NCBI GenBank assembly: GCA_963730605.1
Contig: CAVSSM010000001.1
Location: 608,001-672,000, forward strand
Direction of reading: 5' to 3'
Origin: an uncultured Chlamydiae bacterium
GTDB lineage: Bacteria; Chlamydiota; Chlamydiia; Chlamydiales; SM23-39
DNA: 64,000 nucleotides
The notes under the pieces are model-generated. The model had not been told where the DNA came from and did no database searches. It saw nothing but the letters and a program-made list of their open reading frames with translations. Shown piece by piece: positions 1-64,000 of the stretch; position 1 is the first letter of the stretch; each line of letters starts with the position of its first letter. The position numbers were made by a program, and so were the translations under genes.

Positions 1-58
1 GAACCTATGAGAAGCTTTCTGAACATGGGCAAGGCTTTTTCCAACGATTTTAGCTCTG

Positions 59-1294
59 TACTACAGCGTTTCATTAATTTTGCCAATTGTGGGGTAAAGC
101 TTTTTTAGCTTGATTCTTGCGTCCTCAACTGTGAAGCGCCAGTCTATAACATGCGCATCCTTGTTTCTGCCCTCTAGCCAGGAGGCAACTTCTTTTTTAA
201 CCTCGACTATGTCTCTTAGGCGTCGGTTTAAACATTGCCTGGAAAGGTGGCTTAATTCGATTTCTGCCATGTTTAACCAGCTCCCATGTTTCGGCGTATA
301 ACGAAATTCCAGACGGTCTACGATCCTTTTCGCCTCTTTGGGCGGCAGAAGCTCATAAAGAGCAGCACCTGTATGGATATTTAAATTATCGCAGACCAAG
401 AGGATCTTTTTTGCCTTGGGATAATGCTCCTCTACAAGTTTCTGTATATGTTTGGCCCAATCCAATCGAGTCCTTCTCTCCGAAACATCAATGTATCGTT
501 TCCCTGTTAGTGGCTCAAAACTCAGCAGAATATTACTCACGCCATTGCGCTCATATCCTGTATCAAAGCGTTCAACCTTACCTCGTTTTGCTGGAATGTT
601 ATCCAGCTTTCCTGCCTCGTGTTGCTTACTCGACTCATCCATGCAAATCATTGGATATTCTGGATTGTATGGGCACTTATAGAGGCCTAACACATTTTCC
701 ATTCGGCAAACAAAGTCAGCGTTTTCCTCAGGAGGAATACACCATTCTTTCTTTAGCCAGGGCTTAAGTTCATTTTTTTTAAAGTGCGATGGACTGTGCT
801 TCTGGAAATAGAATCAATAACTTCTAGCTGAACCAGTCTTTCGCTTAACAATCTCAAGGTCCATTCTTTGCGCCCTTCCGGAGGGGCCCCGCAACATATG
901 GCAACCAGATGGGCTTCTTGATCACCATCGAGTTTTCTTGGTTTGTATTGGCGATGTTTTTTTCGGTGCAAAGCAGCTTCCAGTCCATCGTTTGCGAAAG
1001 ATTCTCTGACTCGATGTACAGTGCGTTCGTGAATATTCAACCCTGCCGCAATAGCTTTTGCTCTCAAACCCGGCCCCTCTTCACCAGAATCTGCCTGCAA
1101 TAGTATTCGAGCATGAGTGATTGTTTTTGCCTTCTGCTTTCCTTTATGCACAACTTCGAGTAATTGCTTGCGCTGACTAGGTGTTAACTTGACTTTATAC
1201 TTCTTTCGCATACCTGCACTCCCACGAATTTTACAAGGCGTCAAGTATATTTTTTATCAAGAAATTATGTCAAAATTAATGAAACGCTGTAGTA
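59..1294 (-). mobile_element. IS630-family insertion sequence, apparently intact (61-1292) with TA target duplication
   Basis: Perfect terminal inverted repeats TA-CTACAGCGTTTCATTAATTTTG (59-82) and CAAAATTAATGAAACGCTGTAG-TA (1271-1294); encloses an HTH ORF and a DDE ORF. Confidence 0.93.
61..1244 (-). CDS. IS630 transposase in two ORFs (753-1244 HTH; 61-~780 DDE) joined by a probable programmed -1 frameshift
   Basis: Motifs ICMDES, VCDNLNIH, YTPKHGSWLNMAEIE; A8 run near 773-780, and the -1 frame continues KKNELKPWLKKEWCIP. Confidence 0.9.
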
Positions 1295-1810
1295 CAAAGT
1301 CCAATCCCATAACCTGCATCGCGGTTCTGACTCTCTTTTGGCCTGCGAAAAATTCTTGTGATTTCATCGCTACTGTCATCCGCCGCCGCCCGTAATAGAG
1401 ATGCTGAAGATACTCCTCATCGATCGCACGCATGAGTAGCAAAGCCGCTTCTGAAGGTTTTCTTGGCTCATAGTATAACCCTGAGCGGCCAACGCCGAGA
1501 AGTTCACACTGCTCCCTCTTGGAGAATCGGCCTTCTCTTTCGCCTCTTCACTCGTCTTAGAGGCTTTTCTGGACTTTTCAAAAATCTGAACCCCCATCTC
1601 TAAGAAATGCTTTTTCCAATCGGAGAGCACTATGGGGTGTACCCCAAATTCTCCAGCGAGCTGCGTTGCCGTTTTCTCTCCCTTACTTCCATCACCACCT
1701 TGAGCTTGACTCAGGCGAATGCTTCCTCCGAATCCGGGTCATTTTTCTGCCTCCATTTCTTCGGAGGTTATTAGCTTAGACAGTGGTCCGAATTTTTGGG
1801 ACCATTATAC
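1295..1810 (-). pseudogene. Degenerate IS3-family element interrupted by the IS630
   Basis: Broken orfA (MTRIRRKHSPE..KLKVVME..LAGEFGVHP..LSDWKK) and orfB start (AIDEEYLQHLYYGRRRM); IR-like end near 1780-1810. Confidence 0.75.
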
Positions 1811-4738: not shown

Positions 4739-4989
4739 TATACTGCTCAAAAAAAGTGAATCTGCCGGCGTCGGACAGCCACTGAATTTGAGACCCCACC
4801 TGCACCCCACCCCAAAGACGATGCGTCTTCGGGAACCCCGGCGCTAAACTTTTCAAGTTTAGCTGCTTCGGCGCCGACTTCGTCTGGCTCAAATTCAGGG
4901 CGCTGCTATGCACAAAAAATGTTCATTCAAGAACCTTTTGTGTGATTTCGCAGTGGCATTTTTCACTCTTTTTGATCGGTCGCAGTATA
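4739..4989. mobile_element. TA-flanked MITE-like element carrying a REP-like hairpin
   Basis: Ends TATACTGC..TCAAAAAAAGTGAA and TTCACTCTTTTTGA..GCAGTATA; hairpin CCCCAAAGACGATGCGTCTTCGGG at 4810-4833. Confidence 0.78.
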
Positions 4990-13988: not shown

Positions 13989-14642
13989 TAGACCGCTGGG
14001 GCTTCGCGCCTACTGCTTTCCTTGAAAAAGAGCGCACCCCCGCTCTTTTTCAAGTGTCCGCAGCCCCGCGGGGCTGACTACGGCTGTGGAGATCGTTCGC
14101 GCCTTTGGCGCTCAACTACCTCCATTCCCCTAAGTCGATGCGACTTTGGGGGCCCCTTGGGGCGCGCGTCCTCGGGCTCGTGCGTACATTCGTACTGCCA
14201 CTTCGCCCTGCGGTGCGATTCTCCTTTGCCGCGCGCAGCCATCGGCTGCAACGGCGCGCTCCCACCCCAAAATGTCCCATTTTGGGGCCCCATTCCGCGT
14301 CGCGTTGCAGTGCTTAGCTTGATCACAAATTTATTTATATTCAATCCTCTCCAGTCTCACGTTCTGAATGCGTCTCCCCACCTCCAAAAGGTCCGGGAAT
14401 GGCCTTGATCTTATGAGCCGAAGCATCTCCTGGGTTGCTAATGAGCGGATAATTTTCCTGATCGGGATGATCAGGTTGTGAATAGAAAAACCCAATATCA
14501 CTGTTTACAAAGAGAGTAGCAGTTAGTGGACTGTTTGCAATTCAGGAGTCCTTAGCTGGGAAATTCTTCTGGCCTTCTCTTTAAGCGGTCATTCAAGCAA
14601 CTTTTTCAAGGAAAGCAGTGGGCGCGAAGCCCCAGCGGTCTA
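13989..14642. mobile_element. 654-bp non-autonomous element with 42-bp terminal inverted repeats
   Basis: TAGACCGCTGGGGCTTCGCGCC(T/C)ACTGCTTTCCTTGAAAAAG at both ends (1 mismatch); REP-like hairpin at ~14127-14156; no convincing ORF. Confidence 0.88.
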
Positions 14643-16858: not shown

Positions 16859-18322
16859 TTAAATATTTTTGCTCACAATTTCAGCGATTGCTTTGCGGTT
16901 GATTTTGTGGCCATTTTTGGGCAATTCATCATTGATGAAGAGAAAGCGGATAGGGATTTTGAACTTCGGAAGATGCTCGAGAAGGGCGCTTTTCAGGTAG
17001 GCGGGGTCTTTAGCTCGGGTGGACGCCACGAGGACCGCGAGCGGACGCTTGCCGAATTCAGGGTCGTCAACGGGGACCACCGCAGCTTCGAAAACATCCG
17101 GCAGTAAGAGGAGCTGCTGTTCGATCTCTTCGGGCTGGATATTTTCTCCCCCCGAGATGAACTGCCAGTCAATTCTACCCAAAACGGTCAGCCCGTCGTC
17201 TGACATCCGTCCAAGGTCCCCGGTCGCAAACCAGCTATCTTGATCAAACGGCTTTGAGATTCGCCCCTCTTCCCAGTAGCCCTCAAAGAGGCACTTTCCC
17301 CGCACGAGGATCTCGCCGATCTTCCCCTTCCCCAAAGACGATGCGTCTTTGGGGGCCCCTGTGGGGGAAAGGCGAAGTTCCCGTTCGGGAAGAGGAAAGC
17401 CCAAGGGGACCCCGAAGTCGCATCGACTTTGGGGTTGGGGAAAAAAAGATTTAGCGCCTACAGTGACAAGCGATCCCATTTCAGTCAGACCGTAGGACAG
17501 ATAGCAGGGAAGATGTTCAGGAAAAGAAGAGATGGGGGCGCCGCCGATCAGCAGGCACCGAAGATTTTTGTAGACGGGCGATTTCCGGTAAAGCTGGGCC
17601 GGCACGGCTGAAATGTGGGTGATTTCGGGGTCTTTCTCATCGAGGACAACAGTGGCAAGCGCTAAAGTAGAGCGTATAAGGATGCCGATCCCGCCTACAT
17701 GGTAAAGGGGGAGGTTGAGAAGCCAACGGTCCCCGATCCGTAACCCAAGCCATTTGGCAAGAGGCGCGGCGTTCGAGAGGAGATTAGAGAGCGATAGAAC
17801 GGCAATTTTTGGGAGAGCGGTCGAGCCCGAGGTGAAGAGGAGCGCCGCCGGGAAGGAAAGGGGAGGGTAGCGGTTCATGCGGAGGCGCGGGGAAAGGGGG
17901 GAAAAAGGGAGAAAAGAAAGGGGCCCCCGAAGTCGCATCGACTTTGGGGAAAAAAGGGGCCCCCAATGACGCATCGACTTTGGGGAAAAAAGGGGCCCCC
18001 AATGACGCATCGACTTTGGGGAAAAAGAGTCGATGAAGCAACGGGCGTCGAGGCGAGCGAGCAGGGTTTCGATTTGGGAAGCGGGAAGACGAAGCGATAG
18101 TGGGCAGATCGACGCTCCGATGCGCCAAGCGGCAAAAAATAGGGCTGCCGTTTCGCAAGTTGGGCGGTGCAAAAAAGCGATCCGGTCGCCCGGGCCGATG
18201 CCCGAGGCCTCGAGCGCCCGCGCCATCTTGTCCGCAAGCTCGTCAAGCTCTTGAAAGGTCGTCTTGTCAAAGGCGGGCAGTCGGGGAGCGAGTCTCGCGG
18301 CTTCTTTTAACGGACAGGGCAT
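16859..18322 (-). CDS. menE: o-succinylbenzoate-CoA ligase carrying in-frame REP-like inserts
   Basis: FTSGST..PK, YGLTE, ATGDLG, ISGGENIQPEEIE; located in the men cluster. Confidence 0.9.
   Translation of the reverse strand: MPCPLKEAARLAPRLPAFDKTTFQELDELADKMARALEASGIGPGDRIAFLHRPTCETAALFFAAWRIGASICPLSLRLPASQIETLLARLDARCFIDSFSPKSMRHWGPLFSPKSMRHWGPLFSPKSMRLRGPLSFLPFSPLSPRLRMNRYPPLSFPAALLFTSGSTALPKIAVLSLSNLLSNAAPLAKWLGLRIGDRWLLNLPLYHVGGIGILIRSTLALATVVLDEKDPEITHISAVPAQLYRKSPVYKNLRCLLIGGAPISSFPEHLPCYLSYGLTEMGSLVTVGAKSFFPQPQSRCDFGVPLGFPLPERELRLSPTGAPKDASSLGKGKIGEILVRGKCLFEGYWEEGRISKPFDQDSWFATGDLGRMSDDGLTVLGRIDWQFISGGENIQPEEIEQQLLLLPDVFEAAVVPVDDPEFGKRPLAVLVASTRAKDPAYLKSALLEHLPKFKIPIRFLFINDELPKNGHKINRKAIAEIVSKNI
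17330..17434. repeat. Two REP-like hairpins in opposite orientation inside menE
   Basis: CCCCAAAGACGATGCGTCTTTGGGGGCCCC (17330-17359) and GGGGACCCCGAAGTCGCATCGACTTTGGGG (17405-17434). Confidence 0.85.
17919..18026. repeat. Three tandem 36-bp REP-like units inside menE
   Basis: AGGGGCCCCC..CGCATCGACTTTGGGGAAAAA x3, encoding FSPKSMR(H/L)(W/R)GPL x3. Confidence 0.92.
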
Positions 18323-22951: not shown

Positions 22952-24781
22952 TTAATTTACGGTAAACACCGACTCTCTCGAGCAAGCGGATTGGAATTTT
23001 TTTTGAAACCTGTAGTTTTCATCCCTCTTTGTAAAGAGTTCCACTAGGGCGCTTTGCTCGAAGGAGATGCGCTCGAAGGGGAGATAGGGGATGCCGAACA
23101 TCCGGGCCGCGTCTTCAAAGCGGAAGGAGTGGGAGGCCGCCATATAGGTTTCGAATTGAGGCCACTCTGCGATGGGAAGATGAGAAAAGATGCCGCTGCC
23201 GAAATTGTTCGAGGCCAAAATAACGACAGGGTGGGCGGTTTTTTTCAAAAGGGGAAGGGAATTCAGGTCATGGAGACAGGTCTGGTCTCCAAGAATGGCA
23301 AGGACGGGGGCGTGAAGCCCCTCCGAGAGCCCTGCAGCAGTGGCGATATTGCCGTCGATGCCCGAAAGGCCCCGGTTGCCAAAAAACCCCAGGCATTTTT
23401 TCGGAAAAAGAAAATGATCGGCGTCGCGGATTGGCATCCCGTTCGCAAGGAAAACGGCAAAAAACTCTGGAAGCATTTCGGCGAGATGACGCATCGCGTG
23501 CGCTTCGGTAAAAGGAAAGTCCTCCCGGAACTGGTTTTCAGAGACGGCCAAGATCTCCTCATCGAGCCCTTTCCATCGGCCAAGCCATGAAGGGTCGCAT
23601 CCACCTGCAAATGTTTCGCAAAAAGGTTCGATATCGCACTGCAAACGGCCATGCAATCTCCGGTTCGGATCTTGAAGAAAAGGGGACGGGCTTACATGGA
23701 GTGTCGGCGCCCAATCTAGAATTTTTTTAGAGGCGAACCGATTGCCGAAATGAAGGATATAATCAGGGAACAGGTGCGGATTTGTTTTGATAATCCAATC
23801 GAAATGGCGGATCTGTTCGTAAGAGGGCTCTAGCCTCGCATTGGATAGGATGTCGGCAAATACGGGCCATTGAAGCCTTTCCGCAAGGGTCAAGATAGGA
23901 CGGGGATCGGATCCGGTCTCGCCGATGAAGATGACCCCTCGTTTTGCCTCTGTTTTGGTTGGAGGCGGGACGAGGCGGGCAGGGGCAAAGCGGATGGGGA
24001 ATCCCGATTCTTGGGGAGGATCTCGAGTAAAAGGTTCGCGGAATTGGCAATTGAGCTGGACGGGGCCTTTCGGGTTTTGGGTCGCGTGGAAGACCCCTTG
24101 CGCGGCGATTGAGCGGAAATAACTTTCGGAAAGGTGTGGCGGAAGATCGGCTTGCCAGCGGATAAAATGGCTGAAAATCTTGATTTGGTCCGTGGTTTGG
24201 TTTGCGCCGCAATCTCGGAGCTCTGCGGGCCGATCGCAAGTCAGAAGAATCATCGGCGTGGAGCTGTGGTGCGCCTCCATGACGCTGGGGAGAAGATTGC
24301 CGACGGCGGTCCCCGAGGTCGTGATCACGGCAGCGGGGCGCCTTGCCCCTTTTCCATATCCTAACGCATAAAAACCAAGGCCCCGCTCGTCATAATGGAC
24401 GATCGTTTTCGTTCGAGGGTGTTCTGCGGCCGCCACGACAAGCGGCGTATTTCTCGATCCTGGGGCAATGCAGAAATGATCGGTCCCTTGGCAGATCAAT
24501 TGATCGATGATCCAAAATGCCTCTTTATTAACATGGGTGGTAAAAAGTTGACAATCTACTTGCTGCGCCTCCCTTCGGGCCGATTCGCTTCGCTCATCTG
24601 CTCCGCGAGAAAAAGGTTTCTCGAACCTTTTTCTCGATTCCGCAGCCAAATCGATCTTCCTCGTCGCCCTTGCCTCTGGCAATGGTGCTCCTTGTTCAGA
24701 ACGGGGGCTTTGCCCCCTTCGATTTTGCTGTGGCTCGCTGGCGTATATTGTCTCCTTTTTATCGCCCCTGTTAATAGTCAT
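22952..24781 (-). CDS. menD: SEPHCHC synthase with an 83-aa N-terminal in-frame insert
   Basis: PGSRNTPL, DERGLGF.ALG, TTSGTAVGNLLP, GANQTTDQ, GNRGLSGIDG, GD...LHDLNSL. Confidence 0.95.
   Translation of the reverse strand: MTINRGDKKETIYASEPQQNRRGQSPRSEQGAPLPEARATRKIDLAAESRKRFEKPFSRGADERSESARREAQQVDCQLFTTHVNKEAFWIIDQLICQGTDHFCIAPGSRNTPLVVAAAEHPRTKTIVHYDERGLGFYALGYGKGARRPAAVITTSGTAVGNLLPSVMEAHHSSTPMILLTCDRPAELRDCGANQTTDQIKIFSHFIRWQADLPPHLSESYFRSIAAQGVFHATQNPKGPVQLNCQFREPFTRDPPQESGFPIRFAPARLVPPPTKTEAKRGVIFIGETGSDPRPILTLAERLQWPVFADILSNARLEPSYEQIRHFDWIIKTNPHLFPDYILHFGNRFASKKILDWAPTLHVSPSPFLQDPNRRLHGRLQCDIEPFCETFAGGCDPSWLGRWKGLDEEILAVSENQFREDFPFTEAHAMRHLAEMLPEFFAVFLANGMPIRDADHFLFPKKCLGFFGNRGLSGIDGNIATAAGLSEGLHAPVLAILGDQTCLHDLNSLPLLKKTAHPVVILASNNFGSGIFSHLPIAEWPQFETYMAASHSFRFEDAARMFGIPYLPFERISFEQSALVELFTKRDENYRFQKKFQSACSRESVFTVN
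24526..24776. mobile_element. TA-flanked MITE (family B) inserted in frame in menD
   Basis: 30-bp imperfect TIRs TATTAACA(T/G)GGG(T/C)G(G/A)TAAAAAG..GACAAT; 247 bp + TA = 249 bp = 83 codons. Confidence 0.88.
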
Positions 24782-25727
24782 ACGAAGATCCCGTCATAGA
24801 GGCGGCTTTTTTGATTGAGCTCTTCCCATTCCTCTTCTGGTTCGGACCCTTCGACAATGCCGGTTCCAGCATAGAGATAAGCGCGGTTGCCCCTCACAAA
24901 GCAAGAGCGGATTCCGACGATCCATTCGGAAGTTTCGGGGGTGCTCCAACCAAGAGCGCCGCCGTAGAGGCCCCGCTCGAAGGGCTCCAATGCCCGGATC
25001 AGATGGAACGCCTCTTCAGTGGGAGTGCCGCAAAGAGCTGGCGTCGGGTGGATGCGGGAGAGAATTTCTTCATCGGTAAGATTGTTTTTCAAGGTTGCCC
25101 TGCAGCGAGCATAAAGATGTTGGACATTCTGCGTTTTGTGAAGAGCAATGGGAGAAAATGTAAGAGGTCCTTGGCAAATGGGATGGAGAGCGGTTTGCAA
25201 AAATGTTTGCACAGGAGAGAGTTCCCTAAGGTCCTTCGCGCTCTTCATGAGCTCTTGTCCCAGCCTCTCGTCTTCTTCGGGAGAGCTTCCGCGAGGGCGG
25301 GTTCCAGCCATTGCTTCGCTATAAAGATTCTGCCGTTCGCGGAAAAAAGGCGCTCCGGGCTGGCGCCGAAAAAGGAGATGTCACCCTCGCTGAAACAAAA
25401 GACGTGCGCTCCTTGTGCTTTTCTTTGAAGAGCGGCGGTGAGGGCAAAAGGGTCAGGGCATGACTCCAGCTCCAAAATCTGGCAGCGGGCAAGGACGATT
25501 TTTTCCATCTTCTTTGCGAGGGCCTTTTTCACGGCATGGATCCACTCCGCTTTTTCAGGAACGAAGGTCCGTTTTACTACCTCCATTGAGACGGGGGGTG
25601 GGAGATAGTCCACTCTTGACGACTCTTCTTGAAAAGGAGAGCGCGCATTGGGAAAGAAAGGACGGCATTGGAATTTCGCATCTCGCGGCGGGCCTAGCCC
25701 ATCGCGGTCTGACCAATAGACTCTCAA
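24778..25727 (-). CDS. menF: Isochorismate synthase, split by one frameshift near 25315
   Basis: KIVLAR, GASPERLF in the upstream ORF; AGTRPRG, HPTPALCG, RGLYGG.LGW, YAGTGIVEGS in the downstream ORF. Confidence 0.88.
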
Positions 25728-26422
25728 CGCTTCTCCCCTAAATATAAAGTGACGACGCCAAGCGCCATTGGAATTTGCCGAGACGTGAGGGAGGCGCTTT
25801 TCATTAAAGATAAGAAGGCGCCGCCGCTTGGGAAAGTTTCGATCGTCTCGTTCAAATAGCGGTAGGCTGCTCTATTTTTGGAAAAAAATCCGCCAACGTG
25901 AGGAAGGATGCGGCGCAAATAGAAGAGATGGAGCGTTTTCAAGGGCTTTGGCGGCAAGGAAAATTCCAAGATAAGACACCTTCCGCCGGGTTTCAGGACA
26001 CGGGCAATTTCTTTGAGCGCGGCACTCGGATCGGACACGTTGCGGATCCCGAAAGAAAACGTCGCCGCATCGAAAGAGCTATCCCTAAAGGGGAGCCGCA
26101 AAGCGTCGGCGCGCTGAAATTTGACTTTTGTTTTGTAAGGTTTCGATCCGATTTTGGCCTGGGCAATTTCGAGCATGAAAGAGGCAAGGTCGATGCCGAC
26201 CGCGGACCGGATGTGGGCGTCGCTCTCCATGCAGGCGATGAGCTGATCCCCTGTCCCTGTCGCTATGTCGAGGAGATCCAGATTTTTTCGCTCTGGCAGG
26301 TGCAGGGCGGCACGCCTTCTCCAACCGCGGTCCATCCCAAAGGATAGGATCGAGTTGATCCGGTCATAGGTCGCTGAGATCGCATCGAACATTTTCCAGA
26401 CGTTTTCCCGGGAGTGGGTCAT
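25724..26422 (-). CDS. menG: Demethylmenaquinone methyltransferase
   Basis: MFDAIS..YD..N..LSFG, LDIATGTGD, FGIRNV, RVLKPGG...ILEFS. Confidence 0.93.
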   Translation of the reverse strand: MTHSRENVWKMFDAISATYDRINSILSFGMDRGWRRRAALHLPERKNLDLLDIATGTGDQLIACMESDAHIRSAVGIDLASFMLEIAQAKIGSKPYKTKVKFQRADALRLPFRDSSFDAATFSFGIRNVSDPSAALKEIARVLKPGGRCLILEFSLPPKPLKTLHLFYLRRILPHVGGFFSKNRAAYRYLNETIETFPSGGAFLSLMKSASLTSRQIPMALGVVTLYLGEKR

Positions 26423-28083
26423 GCGGTTGCCTCTTGCTCGGCGGTTCTAGTGTTCGCAGCAAGGAGACCCGCCGCAAGGAAAAATGGGAGCTTCCCTTGC
26501 TGAAAGAGGAGCGGGTAAAAATCGCAGCCCCCGATGAAAAGAAAGGCGATAAAAATAGCGGTCAAAGAGGCAGTGAGGGGGGTAAGGGGTGTGTGGCTCG
26601 CCGCCCAAAGCAAGGAGAAAATGAAGAGGAGAAACGCGGAAAGAGATAGAAGACCCGTTTCTCCAGCCAAGTAGAGATAGATATTATGAGTGGCGCTCGA
26701 CGCTGGGAATTCCTTGCCCCCGAAAGGCTTTTGGGGGAGATAATCAAGGCCGCGGATCGAGAGCTGGTCAAACCCGGCGCCAAAAAGGGGAAAGTCTTTG
26801 ATGACTTGGAGCGCCAAGTTTTGATAGGAGATCCGAAGAGCGTCCGACCCTTGCGCAACCCCATTGTAATTCACGATCCCGCCGCGATCCTTGATTTGGG
26901 TCTGAAGGACAAGAAAGCTAAAAAGGATGGAGAAGGTTATTGTAAGGGCAGGAAGCCGGATCGACTTCCAGAGGAAACGTAAACCATTTTGCCTCAAATG
27001 GAGACCGAACCAGGCCAGGGTGCCGAGCATCAAACTAAAAAGCGCTGACCGGGAAAACGTTAGACTCATCGCGAAGAATTGGATGGGAATCATCAGTGCC
27101 GCTGCAAGACGCCACTTTGGGCGGGAAAAAAGCGAATAAGCCGCAAGGATTGACATGCTTAAATACCCGCCCAGGACGTTTGGGTGCGGGAAGGTGCCTG
27201 AAGGTCGGATCACTTCGCGCGGCTGCACGCCTAAGTTGTTATCGAACAGCCAAATGCGTCCCGAATCGACACCAAATACAGGAAAGCTGGACGGCTCGCT
27301 GAAGAGGCGGAGGCCAAGAGGCCCTTGAATTGCGTATTGGGCGATCGCGAGGCCCGATTGGATGAGCGCGGTTCCTATAAGGCATTGGAGCAAAAGAAAA
27401 GAGAGTTTGGATTTGTCCTCTACTCTCCCGTTGGCAAGGAAACAAAAAAGGATAAAGGGGGTGGCAAGTTGCAATAGGCGGATGTAGGGGATAGGGTAAC
27501 TGGCAAAAGGAGAAAGGGCGATCGAAATCAAAGCGCAAAGAAAAACGGTCCAAAGAAAAACGGCGCCTCTAGGTATGAAGAATCGTCTCAAAGGGATGCG
27601 GAACGCAAAAAGGGCAATGAAGAGGAGCAAAAGAGCGATGACATCGGAAGGGTAGAAATAGATCTTCTTATCGAAGAAGCTCGGCAAAACTAGATTTCCC
27701 GGGATGAGTTTCAGAGAAAAAAAACGGAAGAGCTTGTCGTATTTGTGCTCGAAGGGAATAGCAAAAGCGATAACGCAGAGGAGAAAAAGGGATATACTGC
27801 GCGCGGTTGGCTTCTTAAAATTTGGACGGGCTGCGACTTCGCCAAATCGATCTGCTCCGCGAGAAAAACGGTCCATCCGAGGACCGTTTTTCTCGATTCC
27901 GCAGTCCTCGGAAATATTGCCTTCGGATATTTCCTTCGCCCCGTCCCCAAAAACGATGCGTTGTTTGGGGGCCCCTGGGGAGGTCGGTCGGACCGCTTCG
28001 CTTCGATTTTGCTTTGTCTCGCTTGCGTTCAAATTTAAAAATCCTTCCCGCGCGCAGTATAGACGCCGCCAAAACATAAACAC
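26419..28083 (-). CDS. O-antigen ligase (Wzy_C/WaaL-like) membrane protein with an 89-aa in-frame insert
   Basis: Polytopic; GTFPHPNVLGG, TFSRSA, P.FGAG, HNIYLYLAGETG; probable start at ATG 28077. Confidence 0.85.
   Translation of the reverse strand: MFMFWRRLYCAREGFLNLNASETKQNRSEAVRPTSPGAPKQRIVFGDGAKEISEGNISEDCGIEKNGPRMDRFSRGADRFGEVAARPNFKKPTARSISLFLLCVIAFAIPFEHKYDKLFRFFSLKLIPGNLVLPSFFDKKIYFYPSDVIALLLLFIALFAFRIPLRRFFIPRGAVFLWTVFLCALISIALSPFASYPIPYIRLLQLATPFILFCFLANGRVEDKSKLSFLLLQCLIGTALIQSGLAIAQYAIQGPLGLRLFSEPSSFPVFGVDSGRIWLFDNNLGVQPREVIRPSGTFPHPNVLGGYLSMSILAAYSLFSRPKWRLAAALMIPIQFFAMSLTFSRSALFSLMLGTLAWFGLHLRQNGLRFLWKSIRLPALTITFSILFSFLVLQTQIKDRGGIVNYNGVAQGSDALRISYQNLALQVIKDFPLFGAGFDQLSIRGLDYLPQKPFGGKEFPASSATHNIYLYLAGETGLLSLSAFLLFIFSLLWAASHTPLTPLTASLTAIFIAFLFIGGCDFYPLLFQQGKLPFFLAAGLLAANTRTAEQEATA
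27793..28061. mobile_element. TA-flanked MITE (family A) inserted in frame
   Basis: Perfect ends TATACTGCGCGCGG and CCGCGCGCAGTATA; 265 bp + TA = 267 bp = 89 codons; second copy at 63799-64000. Confidence 0.93.
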
Positions 28084-33328: not shown

Positions 33329-33649
33329 ATGAATTCCCGCACTCCTAGGCACTTTGACGGCACCCGTTCCCCCGGCGTAAAAATCGAGGAACTCTTGCCC
33401 GATCTATTGGCAAAGATCCGTAGGAATTCCGAAATTCCGAGGGAAGCGGTGTTCCGAGAATGGGCTCTTCTTATGGGAGAAAAATTGGCTGGGATGACAG
33501 AGCCCGTCTCTTTTGAAGACGGGGTATTGACGGTCGCTCTGAAAAGTTCGATGCTCTATAGTTTGCTCCGGGTGCATGAAAAGCCCCGACTGCTCAGGAA
33601 GCTCCAAGAAAAATTCCAGGTCAAGGACCTCGTGTTCAAGATCGGGTGA
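33329..33649 (+). CDS. DUF721/DciA-family protein
   Basis: W..LMGE.LA..T.PV.F.DGVL.V pattern; upstream of gyrB. Confidence 0.75.
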
Positions 33650-33657
33650 GGCAAGGC

Positions 33658-36143
<2,486 letters not shown>

Positions 36144-36153
36144 GAGAGAGCCT

Positions 36154-38611
36154 ATGTCCTATACGAAAGATGAAGTCATCGTTCCCCGCAATGTCGAAGA
36201 AGAGATGAAGGAAAGCTACCTTCGCTACTCGATGTCGGTCATCATCTCCCGGGCCCTTCCCGATGTGCGCGATGGGCTAAAGCCCTCCCAGCGGCGTATC
36301 CTCTATGCGATGCGGCAGCTGAATTTGACCCCGGGCGCCAAACACCGAAAATGCGCGAAAATCTCCGGCGACACGTCCGGCGATTACCACCCTCACGGCG
36401 AGACGGTGATTTATCCAACGCTTGTCCGCATGGCCCAGGATTGGGCGATGCGCTATACGCTTGATCAACGGGCAAGGAAACTTCGGATCGATCGACGGCG
36501 ATCCTCCTGCCGCGATGCGTTATACCGAAGCGCGCCTCACCCATGCCGCGATGGCCCTCATGGAAGATCTCGACAAAGAGACCGTCGAGATGATCCCCAA
36601 CTATGACGAGACGAAGACCGAGCCGACGGTATTTCCCGCGAAATTTCCGAATCTGCTCTGCAACGGCTCTTCTGGGATTGCAGTCGGTATGGCGACGAAT
36701 ATCCCTCCCCATAACTTTGACGAGCTCGATCGCCGCGACGATCTTGTGCTCGACAATCGCAGCGCCAGCCATCGACGAGATCATGAAGGTGATGCCCGGG
36801 CCCCGACTTTCCGACAGGCGGCGTCATCTGCGGCTACCGGGGCATCAAAGAAGCCTACCATACAGGCCGAGGCAAGATCATCCTTCGCGCGCTCGTTACG
36901 AGTGGAAGACCTGCCGAATCAGCGGCAGCAGATCATCGTCGATGAGATCCCCTACAACGTCAACAAATCGAGTCCTCATCAAGCGGATCGCCGACCTGAT
37001 CAATGAAAAAGTGATCACCGGCCTCTCCGATATCCGCGATGAATCGGACAAAGACGGGATGCGGATCGTCCTCGAGCTCAAACGGGGCGAGATTCCCGAT
37101 GTGACGATCAACCAGCTCTATAAAAATACCGATCTTCAGGTGACGTTCGGCTGCAACATGCTCGCGCTCGACAAGCGGCTTGCCGCGCACGATGAATATC
37201 AAGCATTTCATCGGCGCGTGGATCGACCACCGGATCGAAGTCATCCGCCGCCGCACCCGCTTCGAGCTTGCCAAAGCAGAAGCCCGCGCCCATATTTTAG
37301 AAGGGTATCTCAAAGCGCTCGACCATCTCGACGAAGTGGTCAAGATCATCCGCGCATCGGAAAACCGCGACGCAGCCCGGACCGAATTGATGGTCCGCTT
37401 TGCCTTATCGGAAAGACAGGCCAACGCCGTCCTCGACCTTCGCCTCTACCAACTGACTGGTCTCGAAGCGGAAAAGATCGAAGCCGAATACAAAGACCTT
37501 CTTGCGAAAGATCGCCCATTTCAAAGCGATCCTCGCGCTGAGGCGATGGTCCGCGACATCATCCGCGAAGAGCTTGAAGAGATCGAAAAAAGCGCTGAAA
37601 TCGGAGCGGAAGACCAAGATCATCGCCGCCGAAGGGGAATTCCAGATGGAAGACCTGATCGCCGACGAACAGGTGGTGATCACCATTTCCAATGACGACT
37701 ACATCAAGCGGATGCCGATCGATACCTTCCGCGAGCAGCGACGCGGCGGCGCCGGCGTCGTCGGCATGGAGATGAAGAAAGAAGCCGACATCCTGAAAAA
37801 CATCTACGTCGCTTCGACCCACGAATATCTCCTCATCTTCACAAACCATGGCCGATGCTATTGGACCAAAGTTTGGCAGATCCCGGAAGCGGGACGCCGC
37901 ACCAAAGGGCGACCGATCATCAATCTTCTCGAAGATTTGCGCGAAAATGAAAAAGTCGCCGCGATCTTCAAAGTGCGCAATTTCGAAGAGGAGGCTTGCA
38001 TCCTTCTTGCGACGTTGAAAGGGGTCGTGAAAAAGACCGAGCTATCGGCGTTCAGCAATCCGCGACGCAAAGGGGTCTATGCCCTCAATATCGACGAAGG
38101 CGACGAGCTGATCGCTGCGCGGATGACCCATCCCGGCCAGCAGATCATGATCTTTACCAAGAACGGCATGGCTGTCCGGTTTGACGAAAGCCTTGTCCGC
38201 CCCATCGGCCGAGTTGGCCGCGGCGTGCGCGGGGTCACGCTTAAAAATGAGAAAGACGATAAAGTCGTCGGCTGCGAAGTGGTCAACGCCGGACGAAACG
38301 ATCCTCATCGTCTGTGAAAACGGCTTCGGCAAACGATCCAATGTCGAAGATTTCCGCCAAACGAACCGCGGCGGCGTCGGCGTCCGTTCGATCATCACCT
38401 CCGAGCGGAACGGCATGGTCGTCGCGGCTCTCAGCGTGACCGATACCGATAGCGTTCTTCTCATGTCGCGGAAGGGCAAGCCGTCCGCATCCCGATGCGC
38501 GATGTCCGCGTCATGGGCCGATCGACCCAAGGAGTGCGCCTCGTCAATGTGAAAGGGGATAACGACATGGTCGTCGGCGCTCAGAAAATCGAAGCGATCG
38601 CGGAAGAGTAA
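36154..38611 (+). CDS. gyrA: DNA gyrase subunit A (multiple apparent frameshifts)
   Basis: [38 protein letters not shown], GyrA box QRRGGAG and C-terminal blades across frames. Confidence 0.93.
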
Positions 38612-38776: not shown

Positions 38777-38998
38777 GAAAAATCAGGGCTCTGCCCTGAC
38801 CCGCCAAAGGCTGCGGAAATACAAAAAAGATTTTTTTGTGCGGAGCAGATCCTTTGGAATCTTGGGATGAAGATGACGCTCAGGATTAGTCTTTAGGCTC
38901 TAGAGAAATATCCTATAGTCCGTTTTAAAAAAATCTGCAAAACGCTTCGCCGTTATCATTCATATTATTCTAAGTCTTTCATTATCAAATATTTTGCT

Positions 38999-40048: not shown

Positions 40049-42422
40049 ATGAGCTTTGAAGTAAAAGCAAGCGTTGGAGTACAAGAAACAGTATGGCGAG
40101 CTCTAAGAAACTGTGTGTCTAAGCACGCCAACACAGTACTTCCTGTCAGCGCAACCGTTTCTATTGTTGCGGGTACTACTGCAGGCGCTGTTATTGCTAC
40201 GGCTCCGATACTAGCGAGTGCAACAATAGTTACGGTAGCTTTAGGTGGAGTTGCAGCTATGTTTTTTGCGGTAGGAACGCAATTATTCCCGCTCAAAAAA
40301 ATGGAAACAGTGGATGCTAAATCGAGTACTATAAACGATTATTTCCTCGATACTACTACTCAGCTCTATGTTGAAAAACTCAATTTTAATACGGAAGAAA
40401 CTCGCAAATCAGCTGAAAAAGTTTTTAAAGATGTTCGGGCTGTCGATCAAGAAGCTCTCTACAATTCCATTAACAATGCAAAGTTTAAAATACGTGAAGA
40501 AAAAAGAATTAAGACAGTTCTTGATGCGACTGTGAACCTTCCAGCACCTGACAGAGCCGAATTTGTCAAGTTGCTAACTGAACTATATCAACCTAAAGAA
40601 TTTACAAATATTATAAATCTGCTCACAGATACTAATAATATTCCAAATCAAGCAGAAATACTAAGTATTCTCAAGCATTTAAAAGTTCTTAACGTGTCAG
40701 CTAGTGTAATAAATGGAGAGATAATAAAGTCTCTTGCGAAATTTACCGATGTTGATAAACGATTCAATATCGTCACATTGTTAAAAGATCTTGGATTAAA
40801 AAATGAGCCTATAGATGAAGCTCAAAGAGGAATTATCAATGGCATAAAATTCCTGAACAAATTTGATGAGGAAGGTGATAGAACAAACGTTGCTACTCGG
40901 ATAAAGAATCTTAAAATCCCAACGAATGATATGCCAAGCTTTATGACCGCTCTGGCAAACTCAATTCATGAATTAAATGACCTACATCATTTCTTAGACC
41001 AGGCTATGAAAATCAATGTGCCCGATAAAATCAAATGTGCTACTTATGCATGTTTAGCTGGCGTTGCTCAGAAAGAAAGAGAGGATTTTGTTCATTTTGC
41101 CAATCAATTATTGCAACCATCATTAAAAGACACCTCAAAATTGGATATCTTGAAAAAATTAGCGTCTATTCCTCCTCGAACTGAACATATTACACCAGCT
41201 CAAATTAAAAGAGCACGAGAAAATTTTGTAAATAAAGTGAAAAGAGATGAAGGTTTTTGTGAAATGATAGATATCTTAGGATTAGAGGCTACTTCATTCA
41301 ATTCTAAAGACTTATTAAAAATCGCTAAACAAATTCATAGTACAACATCAAAAGAAAAATTTCCTGATAAAGGTAGTGAAAATAGAGAGAAATTGCTGAA
41401 AATGGCCTACGATGTAATTAATAATTATGGGACGTTTAATGAATTCGAAAAGCATGTCATCCGTGCAATAGCTCCTAGGAGTGGTATGCTGTTTTTTACG
41501 TCGGATTCAATAAAGCAGAATGCATTTGAAACGTTATCTAAGTCGACTAAAGACCAGCAAAAATTATTTAACCTTATTATAAATCAGAAACGGATGGATG
41601 ATGTGGATGATGTAATCGATTTTGCGAAAGCCATCAATACGATACCAAAAAATGCATTTTTAAAAAATGAATTATTTGATTTTGATAAATTGAATACTAA
41701 TGAATTAAAAAAACTACTTGATAAATTAACTGATAAACAGTGCGCTGTCGTTATTCAGTATTTGGCAAATTTAATAGATTTAAATACAATTAATTTAGAT
41801 ATAAATACAATTTCCAAGATTAATACTGCTATCACTCGTAATATGAGTACAACTTTTCTCGAGTCAATACTGGACGTGCTAGACCTAAGTGCGGCGAGCG
41901 CGCCGGGGGGGGGGCAGCAGTGGTACCAGTGCCAGCGCCAGTGCCAGGAGCAGTGCCAGCAGTGGTACCAGTACCAGTGCCAGCGCCAGGAGCAGTGCCA
42001 GGAGCAGTGCCAGGAGCAGTGCCAGGAGCAGTGCCAGGAGCAGTGCCAGGAGCAGTGCCAGGAGCAGTGCCAGGAGCAGTGCCAGCAGTGGTACCAGCGC
42101 CAGCGCCAGGAGCAGCGCCAGGAGCAGGAGGAGGACCACCACCGCAGCCACCGCAGCTACAGCAGCCACCGCAGCCAGCAGCTACCAGCGCCAGCAGCCA
42201 CCGCAGCTAGCGCCAGCAGCCACGCAGACCCCACCGCAGCCACCGCAGCTACAGCAGCCACCGCAGCCACCGCAGCTACAGCAGCCACCGCAGCCACCGC
42301 AGCTACAGCAGCCACCGCAGCCTACAGCAGCCACCACAGCCGCAAGTAGCCAGACAAACATGGTGGCACTCCCTACAAACATGGTGGCACTCCCTAGTGA
42401 AATTTTTGGACAACAATTTTAG
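40049..42422 (+). CDS. Large AT-rich hypothetical protein (N-terminal hydrophobic hairpin, low-complexity C-terminus; reading frame of the tail uncertain)
   Basis: ORF 40049-42349 with a ~50-aa hydrophobic stretch; repeat tail open in three frames after a G10 tract. Confidence 0.7.
41905..42394 (+). repeat. G10 tract followed by 12-bp, 27-bp and 21-bp tandem repeats
   Basis: CCAGGAGCAGTG x ~8; CAGCCACCGCAGCCACCGCAGCTACAG units; ACAAACATGGTGGCACTCCCT x2. Confidence 0.92.
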
Positions 42423-51300: not shown

Positions 51301-51898
51301 TTTCTACTGCGGCTTTTCCGCGTATGGCGGAGTAGACCGCAATCGTATCGCGCGCCATATTGAATTCTCCACGAATAACCTCCACGCAAAGGGCCATTTC
51401 TCTTCCCTCGATTTCGGGGGACAAGTATCTACCGCTTATCTTTTCGGATCGCCCTATTGCTTCCTCTATCCTTACGCCAACGGCGATTTTTTCTTCTTCC
51501 GGGGGGGGGGAATTTCTGAAACGGGAGCGGACGCTCTCAACCTGAACATCAATTCCCATGTGAGCAGCACGGTGAGATGCGAAGCAGGGCTCGGACTCCA
51601 GGTTCAAGATGCGAACTGGGCCGAGACGGTCTGCGTCTCTCCAATGTTCGAACTAGGTTGGGCCATAGAGCTTCCAATCAACCGCCCGGCCTACCATTCC
51701 CGCTTTGCCGGAGAGCCTTTCGGATTCGAGGCCAAAGGATGGGACCATACCTTCCAGATGTTCACGGTTGACGCAGGGCTCAAAATCACCATCTACAGCT
51801 TTACCTTGTCGGGGGAATATCGGACCGAAATGGCCCTCGACGGCCGGGACAATTTCTGGGATCAGCGAGGCAACCTCACTTTGGGATACGCGTGGTGA
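48383..51898 (+). CDS. Autotransporter with a Gly-rich passenger
   Basis: Signal peptide, poly-Gly tracts, LSGANTYTGGTTI repeats, C-terminal beta-barrel ending in YAW. Confidence 0.88.
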   Translation: MRTSPFLQVLIALAALPAYATTWSVTSNSDNESLTTGTHAGSLPWCILNAAAGDTIDCHAISPTTTITLTKSLPALPVSLTITGDGMNVNVVTITGGGFAAFQTAAGTSIISRFTLTGCASTGGAGGSGTYGGGGGAGGGGGLYLHKGTNVTINTIVFNTNMATGGAGGAAGANGSGGGGGGFGGGAGGASAATTGGGGGGGFSNGGPGGAGTVAGTTGTFLGGGGGGGGNAAGNGANNQGTLNPANKFAGGTSAAGVGGGGGAGDAAAGGNGSSTNGGNGGVGIGSDSNFGGGGGGGGGAAGGPGGAGVGGGGGGGGAVTGGSGGSSTFGGGGGGGTAPGNGGFGGGGGGGVTAGVTAFGGGSGGAGTTAGGGGGAGMGGAIFVGNTAILQVNDGMSFAGNTAMGGAAGAGGGAAVGTGYGPDLFLQSGGTVNFVLMSANLTISTAIQSDNGLGGGTGGGITLRGTKTLILSGANTYTGGTTITSGTLQINSDQALGSSLYGLTIANGTLQTTMALTTARPITLTGAANLDTQGYPVTLSGNLTGSGSFTVLSSMGGGSTVTLSGANTYSGGTTVGATMTLTGTTTSLQGNIALAATTSTLTFNQTSNGTYSGSISGAGNLNIIGGSGTVQITGSSPGFTGPVMIASGNTLQIDGSLQNSSLVTVPSGAALTGTGTVGPTQNSGTISPGDSGGTGTISMNGTLTLMASSQLQIAVPPSGQSGLVAVAGTAALNGSVLFNTSSGGFFGFSKSYLFLSSAGLGGTTFSSFSFTNPSFMGTVTYSATDAFLILTNAAPFAGFQFYTANERHVGNYLDALNAAGVINPALADIVNSMDGFTTAQVNDALDQMHPAIYSALIGGLQPSVGGQLLSLFHRRPYLPCGCCPQTVRLWATPMGNWLREGNLGEQTAYVAQTRGVCLGFDGAIGENWSLGIGAAWNEASLLWQRNRGTGTVHKYLAALYSDFFMECLYMQAFYCGFSAYGGVDRNRIARHIEFSTNNLHAKGHFSSLDFGGQVSTAYLFGSPYCFLYPYANGDFFFFRGGGISETGADALNLNINSHVSSTVRCEAGLGLQVQDANWAETVCVSPMFELGWAIELPINRPAYHSRFAGEPFGFEAKGWDHTFQMFTVDAGLKITIYSFTLSGEYRTEMALDGRDNFWDQRGNLTLGYAW

Positions 51899-56213: not shown

Positions 56214-56479
56214 TTCTTAATGATTTATTTATGGTCGATTTTGAGGCGATTTTTCGTCGTCGACCGCCCAAAGTAAATATCGGGACGGTGATCTTTACGA
56301 GGGCGGAGGCGCGAAAAGCGCCCAAAAGCGTGCCGTAAAGGGATCGTGAAGAATTGGAGGATAGGTTCATATAGCCTGGGTGAATTTTCAACCAAGCCGT
56401 TATATAAATGCAATCTTCCTTGCCAATAGCGCCCGCGTCCGTTATTCTAATAGGAGTTTTTGAGTAGGAAAATGTCGCG

Positions 56480-56520
56480 AAAAAGGGGCCTCGTAGTCGC
56501 ATCGACTATGGGGAAAAAAA
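56480..56520. repeat. REP-like unit at the 5' end of tpiA
   Basis: AAAAAGGGGCCTCGTAGTCGCATCGACTATGGGGAAAAA, same family as the menE units. Confidence 0.8.
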
Positions 56521-61917: not shown

Positions 61918-64000
61918 TTATTTTCTAATCAAATTAAGTTGCCAAGTAAATCGGTCGTCTTTGTCTGTATGGCGATAGGAAAGACGGAGTTTTAGCGAGG
62001 TGGCGATCCAGGTGAAAAGGTCGAGTTGAAATTCGTTATAGGGATCTTCGGTCGATCGGAGAAACCCGTGATGGGACTGGAAATGGCATTCCCAAAAAGG
62101 GGAGAGACGGACAAAAATGTCGGTGAGGAGGGTCAGCCTCCGGTCGGAAAGAGGCGAGGCGAGAAGGTCGCTTTCCGAACGGGTGACGTCGAGGATGAAA
62201 TTTTCATGGTCCGCTTTGCGCCAGTCGTATTGGGAACGGTAGCGCGCTTCCAGGCTAAGCGCAATATTTTCATTGATCGTCCAACGACACCGGGCGTTCA
62301 TGAAGTCGTCCACATGATTCCGGAAGTTCCATGCGTTATGGAAGGATAGATAGACGGAAGCGAGGCGCCATTCGAGCCAAAGGTAGAGGCGGGGGATGAA
62401 CTGGGGAATGGTTGGGTTGGAAAAAAATGCGTTTGCATAGAGATCGGCCGTAAACCACGGTTCAAACACTTTGCTGACTTTTGTAAAAGTAAGACTGCGG
62501 ACCCCTCCCTGGATCTGGTTGATTTGGTTGTAGCCGTCCATGATCGAAAAGATATAGTGGTCATCGGGCCTGACTGTCGGACGGGTCAGGGCCAAAAACC
62601 CGGCATAAGGTTCGATGACATGCTGATTCTGGGAGTAGGACCTAACTCCTCTTGCGGCGAGGTCGGCCCCATAGACAAGGAGGCCAAGGGCTTTTGAGTT
62701 ATGCGATGCGCTATTGGTATAGAGCGTCCCGATCCCGCCGACGTTCGGGGTGAAGGTGACAGGGCCCCAATGGAAAGGGCGATGGAGCCTTTCCCGGATT
62801 TCAATACGCCCCGAGCGGTAATCCATGGGAGGCTTGAGGGTGGGCGTCGTGGCGAGCTGGTCAGAATAGGCGAAATCGAGGTAGGAGGCCTTTAGGAAGA
62901 GGCTAGACAGGATGCCGGTCGGCCCTAAGGTCATGGGTAGCAGATTGAGATAAAAAGTCGGCAAGTCTTGTTTGATCGACTCGAATGTGTTTAACCTAGG
63001 CCGGGCTTTAAAATTGGCGATGCAAAGCGGCGCCGCATGGTAAGCCCAAAAAAGGGTCTGCTGGGCTGTGCCGATTTCGAAATCTTCGCTCCTAAAATCG
63101 CTTGGCATCCGCACATCGCTATATTTATCCCAAGTCAATGCGGTATTGGTCCTCCCATCCTGGCTGCGCCAGTGATGAGCTCCTTCTAAGCGGAAACGGA
63201 ATTGTTTATTGGGCGCTGTTTCGAGCCGGTCTGTTCCTACATAGCTCCGTGTAACGAAGATGCTTTGCCCGTCCGGAGGGAAATATTCGCTTTCGATGGC
63301 TCCTCCCCAACCGGAGCTCCAACGGTATTCCACTCTTCCGAACAGGGCAAAATCACGCCAAGAATAAAGCTGATAGCGCATCCCGGCCCGCAAACCTTGG
63401 CCTCTATCCCAGTTGAGGAAATACCGGACGATCGGATCGCGGTTGCTTTTTTTCAGGTTCAATTTAAAGGAGGGGAGCCAAAAGGTGGGGATTTTATATA
63501 GGCGAAACGCGATGTTTTTCGCGATGAAAAGATCGGAGCTCTTAGCCTCAATGCGGCTCGCATGAAGGTCCCAATCGCTGTCTTTGTTTTCCGAGGCTGT
63601 AATGGAAGCGTTTTCCACCTCATAGCTGCCGTCGGCGTTCAATTCGATCCTCTCTCCCGAGATATACCAAAGGCTGAAAAACGTTTTTCCTTTGAACACG
63701 ACTCCAGTATTTGTCAGGAAATCGTATTCCAGCCTCTCGCCGACAAACACCCGATCTTTGTACTGGATCATCAAGTCGCCGGACGCTTCGATCCGATGTA
63801 TACTGTACGCGGTTGGCTTTTTAAAATTTGGACGGGCTGCGACTTCGTCAAATCGATCTGCTCCGCGAGAAAAACGGTCCATCCGAGGACCGTTTTTCTC
63901 GATTCCGCAGTCCTCGGAAATATTGCCTTCGGATATTTCCTTCGCCCCGTCCCCAAAAACGATGCGTTGTTTGGGGGCCCCTGGGGAGGTCGGTCGGACC
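61918..64000 (-). CDS. LptD/OstA-like outer membrane protein (5' end beyond the window) with an in-frame family A insert
   Basis: Aromatic-rich beta-barrel-like sequence, YDFLTNTG, IPTFWLP; the frame stays open through the element to position 64000. Confidence 0.7.
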   Translation of the reverse strand, partial: VRPTSPGAPKQRIVFGDGAKEISEGNISEDCGIEKNGPRMDRFSRGADRFDEVAARPNFKKPTAYSIHRIEASGDLMIQYKDRVFVGERLEYDFLTNTGVVFKGKTFFSLWYISGERIELNADGSYEVENASITASENKDSDWDLHASRIEAKSSDLFIAKNIAFRLYKIPTFWLPSFKLNLKKSNRDPIVRYFLNWDRGQGLRAGMRYQLYSWRDFALFGRVEYRWSSGWGGAIESEYFPPDGQSIFVTRSYVGTDRLETAPNKQFRFRLEGAHHWRSQDGRTNTALTWDKYSDVRMPSDFRSEDFEIGTAQQTLFWAYHAAPLCIANFKARPRLNTFESIKQDLPTFYLNLLPMTLGPTGILSSLFLKASYLDFAYSDQLATTPTLKPPMDYRSGRIEIRERLHRPFHWGPVTFTPNVGGIGTLYTNSASHNSKALGLLVYGADLAARGVRSYSQNQHVIEPYAGFLALTRPTVRPDDHYIFSIMDGYNQINQIQGGVRSLTFTKVSKVFEPWFTADLYANAFFSNPTIPQFIPRLYLWLEWRLASVYLSFHNAWNFRNHVDDFMNARCRWTINENIALSLEARYRSQYDWRKADHENFILDVTRSESDLLASPLSDRRLTLLTDIFVRLSPFWECHFQSHHGFLRSTEDPYNEFQLDLFTWIATSLKLRLSYRHTDKDDRFTWQLNLIRK
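63799..64000. mobile_element. Family A MITE, second copy (cut by the window edge)
   Basis: Nearly identical to 27793-27994 (about 4 substitutions); same TA boundary, orientation and frame. Confidence 0.92.

Follow-up and report, generated by a model that had tools for sequence, protein, structure and literature searches.

The small dispersed repeats (SDRs) of Nostoc and its relatives, reportedly the subject of Elhai et al. (2008), are 21–27 nt long and conserve their structure across sequence variation. [quoted passage not shown] M1 is a real module that has been gained repeatedly; its replacement junction is unusual, and its structural signature can be put to a direct test. In our preferred reading, to which we give a probability of roughly 0.6, it is a gene-less mobile micro-element, copied into repeats as folded single-stranded DNA and then carried by their transposition. 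M1 behaves like the very small mobile hairpins of cyanobacteria and mitochondria, yet it lacks their membership features, as well as those of repetitive extragenic palindromes (REPs), MITEs and integron attC sites. No description of the module was found in the literature, subscription papers and supplements lying outside the search.

Comparison with described systems

With the SDRs, M1 shares very small size, a gene-less and structured unit and precise insertion; it is about twice as long, a comparison made by description and not by sequence, and differs in targeting other repeats at purine-rich sites, in replacing 5–6 bases and in being chlamydial. The Nostoc SDRs are cited in PMC3116915 and PMC4390886, and SDR5 inserts precisely inside HIP1 (PMC4390886).

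Like M1, the yeast GC42 element (PMC4478555) and the double-hairpin or repetitive hairpin-forming elements (PMC2800124) are palindromic mobile units of 40–50 nt with presence/absence polymorphism; mitochondrial GC clusters and double hairpins further share with it the merger and shuffling of modules and a constraint on stems, and the Allomyces double-hairpin elements are likewise without flanking duplications (PMC2800124). GC42 is flanked by AG/ACT direct repeats (PMC4478555), whereas M1 deletes target bases, and M1 is unlike the mitochondrial elements in being bacterial, in nesting in transposons and in keeping non-canonical G.A loops.

The hosts A and B are ordinary IS630-type MITEs that behave like Rickettsia palindromic elements (PMC10969869), which they match in TA ends, inverted termini, long hairpin fold and in-frame insertion in metabolic genes. 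M1 itself is unlike a MITE, with only 4-bp inverted ends and no duplication; the portion of that review cited here contains no mention of 'nested', 'small dispersed' or 'Chlamyd'. The pneumococcal BOX (PMC3049150) resembles M1-loaded MITEs in its MITE-like shell and optional, independently folding internal modules, but boxB varies as a tandem array at one place, whereas M1 is found at many sites in unrelated shells, with target replacement. REPs and REPINs with their REP-associated tyrosine transposase, RAYT (PMC3733652, PMC3116915), resemble M1 as imperfect hairpins of similar size that are likely handled as single-stranded DNA; M1 has no GTAG or CGTC tag at its foot (it ends CTGC/GCAG) and its copies are placed within MITEs, not between genes. 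No RAYT gene flanked by M1 was found, none of the 8 loci with a Y1 transposase containing a copy. Integron attC sites carry an AAC...GTT core in the outer stem and occur in cassette arrays; set against these features, the outer stem CTGC/GCAG and the occurrence in MITEs rather than arrays led us to reject an attC identity for M1.

M1 within two MITE families

The two host loci comprise the following features, in window coordinates:

24526..24776, no strand assigned, MITE of family A; 251 nt with the TA at either end counted, a net 249 nt or 83 codons
24598..24645, minus strand, M1 in family A, 48 nt, 63.7 bits
22952..24781, minus strand, menD (thiamine pyrophosphate enzyme), host gene of A, in frame through A
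24645..24657, plus strand, backbone word GCCAAATCGATCT common to A and B, with the A module on one side and the B module on the other
27793..28061, no strand assigned, MITE of family B; 269 nt with the TA at either end counted, a net 267 nt or 89 codons
27852..27904, minus strand, M1 in family B, 53 nt, 15-bp inner stem
26419..28083, minus strand, O-antigen-ligase-like host gene of B (Wzy_C domain), in frame through B
63799..64000, no strand assigned, second B copy, running 67 nt beyond the window end, in frame in a 785-codon open reading frame (ORF), with M1 at 63858-63910

Family A is inserted after codon 2 of menD, and family B in the 5' part of the O-antigen-ligase-like gene. Their terminal inverted repeats are imperfect (19/22 bases match in A, 16/22 in B), TA flanks both ends of each, and at 251 and 269 nt they are too short for a transposase. 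Relatives differ from TA by substitution at the site, which makes a TA target duplication no more than probable. The source genome (G000) was compared with others, including G003, G024, G035, G141, G178 and G323. G003 reads straight through the A site, a contig of run X6 skips 251 nt there, and the B site is empty in two G003 homologues. A family A copy in G003 lies roughly 50 nt away from the position that family B occupies in the source genome (L016, G003 C33:7826-8005); the 5' region of the O-antigen-ligase-like gene has thus taken two independent insertions.

On the host (minus) strand M1 reads CTGC-GNA-stem-loop-stem-GNA-GCAG over 47–53 nt, and the A and B cores CTGC-GGA-nn-stem-loop-stem-n-GGA-GCAG; that of A has the outer CTGC/GCAG stem, a GGA/GGA purine loop, a 13-bp inner stem and an apical loop. 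Folded as DNA, this strand gives z = -3.1 for A and -4.4 for B. A preliminary description of the window had reported a shared core at 24596-24645, 27850-27904 and in a third copy, where it is placed here at 63856-63910, with apical stems that differ yet pair (GGTT/AACC and CGGTCC/GGACCG). All of this is confirmed, save that the module proper runs from CTGC to GCAG and the leading AT belongs to the flank. Its statement that GCCAAATCGATCT precedes the core in A and follows it in B is right for the minus strand only; on the plus strand the word comes after the core in A (24645-24657) and before it in B (27841-27853).

All three window copies read FSRGAD in the host frame, in both host proteins, as had been reported, and in the ORF of the third copy, and the core might on this ground be retained for the added peptide. 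Only the 3' arm shares the frame, however, since the 5' arm is read as AAESRK in A but as CGIEK in B. Gene-embedded copies make use of all three frames: the 27 sense rows divide 4/12/11 for the 5' arm and 12/5/10 for the 3' arm (the copies are related, so these counts are not independent), and just 37/95 copies lie in an ORF of at least 200 codons. The frame counts refute selection on the peptide, an explanation we now consider to have next to no chance of being correct.

Occurrence in the genome and the phylum

M1 is far more frequent than chance would give: a strict descriptor matches the source genome 21 times, against 0, 0 and 0 in three Markov simulations. Dropping the pairing requirement gives 31 matches, every one a hairpin when inspected, whereas the pattern in reverse gives 2; a relaxed descriptor gives 97 versus 10 in the reversed genome, of which 9 were removed by eye as non-members to leave 88 copies. 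The covariance model that had been proposed earlier was built from 45 of 57 distinct locus copies, the 12 omitted being near-duplicates, one collapsed copy, one bulged copy and four 54–56-nt variants from G323. It finds at least 96 matches in the genome (150 of 1352 candidates scored) and 6 full-length copies in the window. Beyond those of A and B, the window holds:

14013..14063, minus strand, M1 of a different stem subtype, terminal in an element of 654 nt whose inverted ends are 42 nt long
4903..4953, minus strand, M1 inside a MITE of another family
38811..38848, plus strand, M1 with a shortened inner stem; the G003 orthologue retains both ends and has lost nearly all of the stem

The arms of the 654-nt element (13989-14642) include the start of M1, and in its interior lie further hairpins, with no recognized gene. 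Long near-perfect inverted duplications at G000 C1:703152-737986, C10:1-20199 and C8:3470-5366 are possibly fold-back assembly artefacts, so M1 copies on C10 may be double-counted.

Among 149 other genomes of the phylum, an evenly drawn sample with 40 candidates scored per genome, M1 occurs in 7: 1/18 of its own family, 6/22 of a second family and 0/109 across 25 other families. Longer variants that keep these ends occur in a third family. Among 80 genome-collection matches listed, 76 are metagenome-assembled genome records titled Chlamydiae, Chlamydiales, Rhabdochlamydiaceae, Parachlamydiales, Verrucomicrobia or 'uncultured bacterium'; the four outside chlamydia-like records fold poorly and were taken as chance, and no cyanobacterial record is among those listed. 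Viral contigs gave 0 matches. A panel of 38 genomes, chosen on motif counts, has 12–90 copies per genome in 10 and none in 28; a loose phylum-wide pattern was noisy and served only to rank genomes. Two further contexts were noted: a 3.1-kb M1-bearing contig in a record titled Candidatus Collierbacteria (L212), whose context matches source-genome MITEs and which may reflect bin contamination or transfer, and a multicopy M1-bearing repeat in G035 (L043, L063, L239), whose end abuts the start codons of several opposite-strand genes.

Structure and covariation

Conservation of structure, proposed in the preliminary description, is borne out in the larger copy set: across the 45-copy alignment, both-sided changes occur at 13/14 pairs of the inner stem. 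Paired cells amount to 90.5% in the alignment versus 75.5% when shuffled and 41–51% in slid controls, a contrast that the shuffle control overstates because members were selected for folding and the outer motif and are related to one another. The invariance of the outer CTGC/GCAG is likewise partly an artefact, since the searches required it. G-T pairs are 45 of 1788 predicted pairs.

Searches of Rfam 15 gave 0 matches in the window and, in 13 loci, four weak miRNA or small-RNA matches of 20–24 bits, far under the gathering score. By-eye comparison with consensus forms of the K-turn, hammerhead core, signal recognition particle helix 8 and attC gave no fit. Historically, an inner stem could have entered CTGCGNAGCAG and duplicated 5 nt to give rise to M1; six such words occur in the genome, and present-day empty sites lack CTGCGNAGCAG. 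A separate family of hairpins, in which two stems enclose a GGA/GGA loop and the outer bases differ, was seen at G000 C1:128753-128790, 138943-138980 and 387712-387749.

Filled and empty sites

M1 is optional cargo of other repeats. The G003 copy of A is without M1 and the adjoining companion module M3 (net difference 72 nt), and its C131 copy of B is without M1 (net 48 nt, 5 target bases being replaced in B); matching empty sites occur in G024, and complete MITE copies without M1 exist. Such clean presence and absence in sister copies suggests that M1 spreads as a tiny parasite of other mobile DNA. The earlier view of the MITEs as mosaics of hairpin modules thus holds, in that the modules are optional, and the apparent shuffle between A and B arises because modules landed on opposite sides of one shared backbone word.

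A single site of one backbone type in the source genome has three states: 4 copies are empty, one of them by its junction despite a different label from a loose pattern, 4 have one M1 subtype replacing AGGAGG and 3 have another replacing AGGCG. The empty sequence holds everything that both filled forms keep, plus bases found in neither; empty junctions are not, therefore, deletion scars. True deletion remnants also occur, and these retain pieces of M1 and look different from empty sites.

A survey of junctions took in 225 distinct filled copies and 157 left flanks, some rows being spurious matches within tandem repeats. Where M1 comes alone, 6 bases are replaced at a number of unrelated sites and 5 elsewhere; M1 with M3 replaces 1–5 bases with a net gain of mostly 72 nt, and target bases are replaced, none duplicated. 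The left end is CTGC at all resolved junctions, mostly preceded by GG; among 154 distinct contexts, 118 have G at -2 and 114 have it at -1, and nothing is conserved past about -4. Net insertion lengths are frequently, not always, multiples of three, one common site having 46–47. M1 also occurs inside the loop of another M1, in the inverted repeats on both sides of an ORF with the GxxExxY motif (L141), and in a 257-nt MITE family of G178 with 4-bp duplications in 4/6 copies. In G141 a gene carries in frame a block of about 89 nt (M1, M3 and 21 nt of MITE backbone) that has no inverted ends; the block is missing from three homologues, which are too distant to resolve the exact junction.

The companion modules in the window are:

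24571..24597, minus strand, M3 in A, 27 nt, a tandem-GA hairpin with a C(GAA)G triloop followed by a CCC-GAA-GGG mini-hairpin
27939..27983, no strand assigned, M2-type optional hairpin block in B, 45 nt, absent from the G003 C131 copy
17914-18026, 17325-17365, 14122-14162, 52408-52448, 56478-56518 and 27939-27983, no strand assigned, M2 occurrences

M3 of A was gained jointly with M1 (net 72 nt, 3 target bases replaced), and M3 directly follows M1 in 80/221 distinct copies. Its tandem GA/GA is kept around a two-pair stem, changed on both sides in 8 copies, and its cap is most often a GNA triloop. M2 was seen to be optional at three or more MITE sites, and it forms a 36-nt triple tandem within a menE-like ORF.

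These sites bear on two other histories. One MITE or IS lineage might have had M1 ancestrally as an internal cis element and lost it repeatedly, with the mosaics formed by MITE recombination; 68/95 copies in the genome lie inside detectable TA-bounded inverted repeats, A and B have backbone words in common, and deletion remnants do exist. That history is largely refuted by the three-state site, where one position holds different subtypes with different junctions, and the extra bases of empty sites also speak against it. M1 further occurs in repeats with unrelated ends and duplications, inside itself and without inverted ends, and in none of 47 transposase, reverse transcriptase (RT) or nuclease loci searched, so that neither this history, which we rate as very improbable, nor the module being a fragment of an ordinary IS fits the data.

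A more serious competitor dispenses with any dedicated enzyme: M1 would pass on lagging-strand DNA from one hairpin-rich repeat to another, by short-patch gene conversion or template switching at 2–5 nt of microhomology, with stable folds favored only through their survival as donors. It would account for the GG or AGG ahead of most copies and within many targets, the co-transfer of donor flank on one side, the arm chimeras and tandem M1 units, and the fact that no enzyme co-occurs cleanly with M1. It sits poorly with the constant CTGC end, with the 5–6 bases replaced at unrelated sites and with the all-or-none distribution in the 38-genome panel. In addition, backbone-specific variants persist 3–4 nt to the left and 4–6 nt to the right of the junction, tracts too short for homologous conversion. 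On balance we find this explanation doubtful.

Single-stranded DNA or RNA

In one M1 subtype the letters of a second internal loop were unconstrained by the search pattern; its 5' side is G..A in 50/50 copies and its 3' side G-N-A in 47/50, with the middle base C in 29, T in 10, G in 7 and A in 4. Genome-wide, 17/35 counts of hairpins with 3x3 loops are GGA/GGA or the complement (a hairpin may be counted twice). Within 100 nt of the 88 copies, C(GNA)G mini-hairpins number 92 on the GGA strand versus 7 on the other, with 20.6 expected. UUCG hairpins number 1 and 11 on the two strands, the 11 being largely the complement of C(GNA)G words. In DNA, GCGNAGC mini-hairpins are far more stable than the RNA counterpart, are nuclease-resistant and are present at priming sites (PMC13037366), and G.A-bracketed GGA (guanine) zippers are solved DNA structures (PMC11014236). 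The conserved G..A loops and the one-strand C(GNA)G bias favor, as far as sequence can tell, an M1 that acts as single-stranded DNA and not as RNA. The RNA-processing signal of the preliminary description finds no support here, the conserved non-canonical motifs being of the DNA mini-hairpin and G.A-zipper kind and lying on one strand.

Were M1 instead to act as RNA, it could be transcribed with host genes and reverse-transcribed into nicked targets, or serve as a processing or protein-binding signal. One fixed end with a variable other end does resemble target-primed reverse transcription; three group II introns, nearly identical and each with its RT frame intact, are present in the genome (G000 C1:286485-288438, C4:1-1952, C8:29770-31716); and among long ORFs the GGA strand is sense in 27/34 rows. 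Yet RT was not found in 7/10 positive genomes, apical loops are mostly C-closed triloops or G-rich loops rather than GNRA or UUCG, Rfam gave no match, and the sense bias can arise because of stop codons on the opposite strand. We hold action as RNA to be unlikely. The intron ends are not adjacent to M1, and the introns were set aside as a link to it.

Candidate enzymes

Enzymes were tallied in the 38-genome panel, with 10 positives, or 15 when 5 more from pattern matches are added, and 28 negatives (G323 counts as negative despite its 54–56-nt variants). RT (3/10 positive versus 9/28 negative genomes), Y1 transposase (5/10 versus 11/28), IS110 (2/15 versus 4/28) and IS630 (8/15 versus 11/28) show no association; RAYT, RT, IS110 and IS630 were rejected as mobilizers for want of co-occurrence with M1. 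Clustering of 1119 ORFs near M1 gave no recurrent mobile-element enzyme, and Y1 in the source genome is one partial match beside a broken IS605-type ORF.

The sole candidate that co-occurs above chance, imperfectly, is the GxxExxY PD-(D/E)XK nuclease, found in 12/15 positive versus 9/28 negative genomes (Fisher p = 0.004, overstated because kin genomes are not independent). M1 occurs in 0/30 loci around GxxExxY genes, and three module-rich genomes have no GxxExxY match. Many chlamydial GxxExxY (PF13366) genes are flanked by long inverted repeats (L272-L301), resembling RAYT genes and REPs.

The source genome is dense in TA-bounded inverted-repeat elements and has 29 matches to the IS630-type transposase (DDE_3), of which one lies in the window:

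54..1299, minus strand, IS630-family insertion sequence

It is likely that the IS630 family moves the TA-flanked MITEs and not M1. An IS630 present in 14 copies has its first 15 bases in common with other MITE families that bear M1, but with neither A nor B.

Proposed mechanism

In the preferred reading, that of a micro-element copied as single-stranded DNA, sheared G.A brackets and C(GNA)G triloops would form in the folded purine strand. A nuclease, encoded by the host or by the element, would recognize the invariant CTGC-GNA...GNA-GCAG base together with a purine-rich, often unpaired target, mostly ending GG. Copying would begin at CTGC, end at GCAG or continue into the donor flank, and rejoin a few bases downstream. 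IS630-type and other transposases could then amplify the M1-loaded MITEs, and selection may retain the ones that, by net length and frame, leave the host gene unharmed. The cis signal suggested in the preliminary description is best read as one for M1's own mobilization; a signal needed by the MITEs is at odds with the MITE copies complete without M1 and with the varied sites and junctions.

Several points weigh against this reading. The direction of gain and loss is argued from junctions and not from a rooted tree, and near-identical strains did not reveal any new insertion. In the folded empty MITE, prediction leaves the first replaced base unpaired (<0.1) for only 6/11 site readings, so that the modeling gives just a weak indication that target bases are often unpaired. 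Tandem G.A pairs are common in RNA too. Arm-to-arm copying can mimic compensation, giving both-sided changes without selection, and chimeric copies with arms of two subtypes show that ordinary recombination also acts. The biases of the shuffle control and of the outer motif, the enzymes that show no association, and the loci and module-rich genomes in which M1 and GxxExxY fail to meet count on the same side.

A bolder form of the idea is that M1 founds a class of elements of about 50 nt defined by a folded single-stranded DNA shape (G.A zippers, GNA mini-hairpins) and pasted by a dedicated nuclease, possibly GxxExxY, into transposon bulges with replacement of 5–6 bases, a junction unlike those of DDE, HUH, IS110 and retro-elements. 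This must be regarded as speculative and rather improbable.

Neighboring features

The split of a menF-like gene (ORFs 24778-25311 and 25245-25727) at window 25342 is probably an error of assembly, since all four runs have one additional A there; the gyrase/topoisomerase ORFs at 33646-38317, also split, may share this cause. Two long ORFs of low-complexity repeats, at window 40049-42349 and 48383-51898, have no Pfam match.

Significance

How hairpin repeats under 100 nt move, be they SDRs, mitochondrial GC clusters or double hairpins, is a long-open question. The source genome supplies about 100 M1 copies, several resolved filled and empty junctions, a reproducible replacement signature and a testable structural code, which make the mechanism approachable with short oligonucleotides and a few candidate enzymes. 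If the reading offered here is true, M1 would offer a natural, comparative case for selection acting on single-stranded DNA through its non-canonical G.A structures. For the organism, gain of M1 explains the stepwise lengthening of its MITEs, often frame-preserving in essential genes such as menD.

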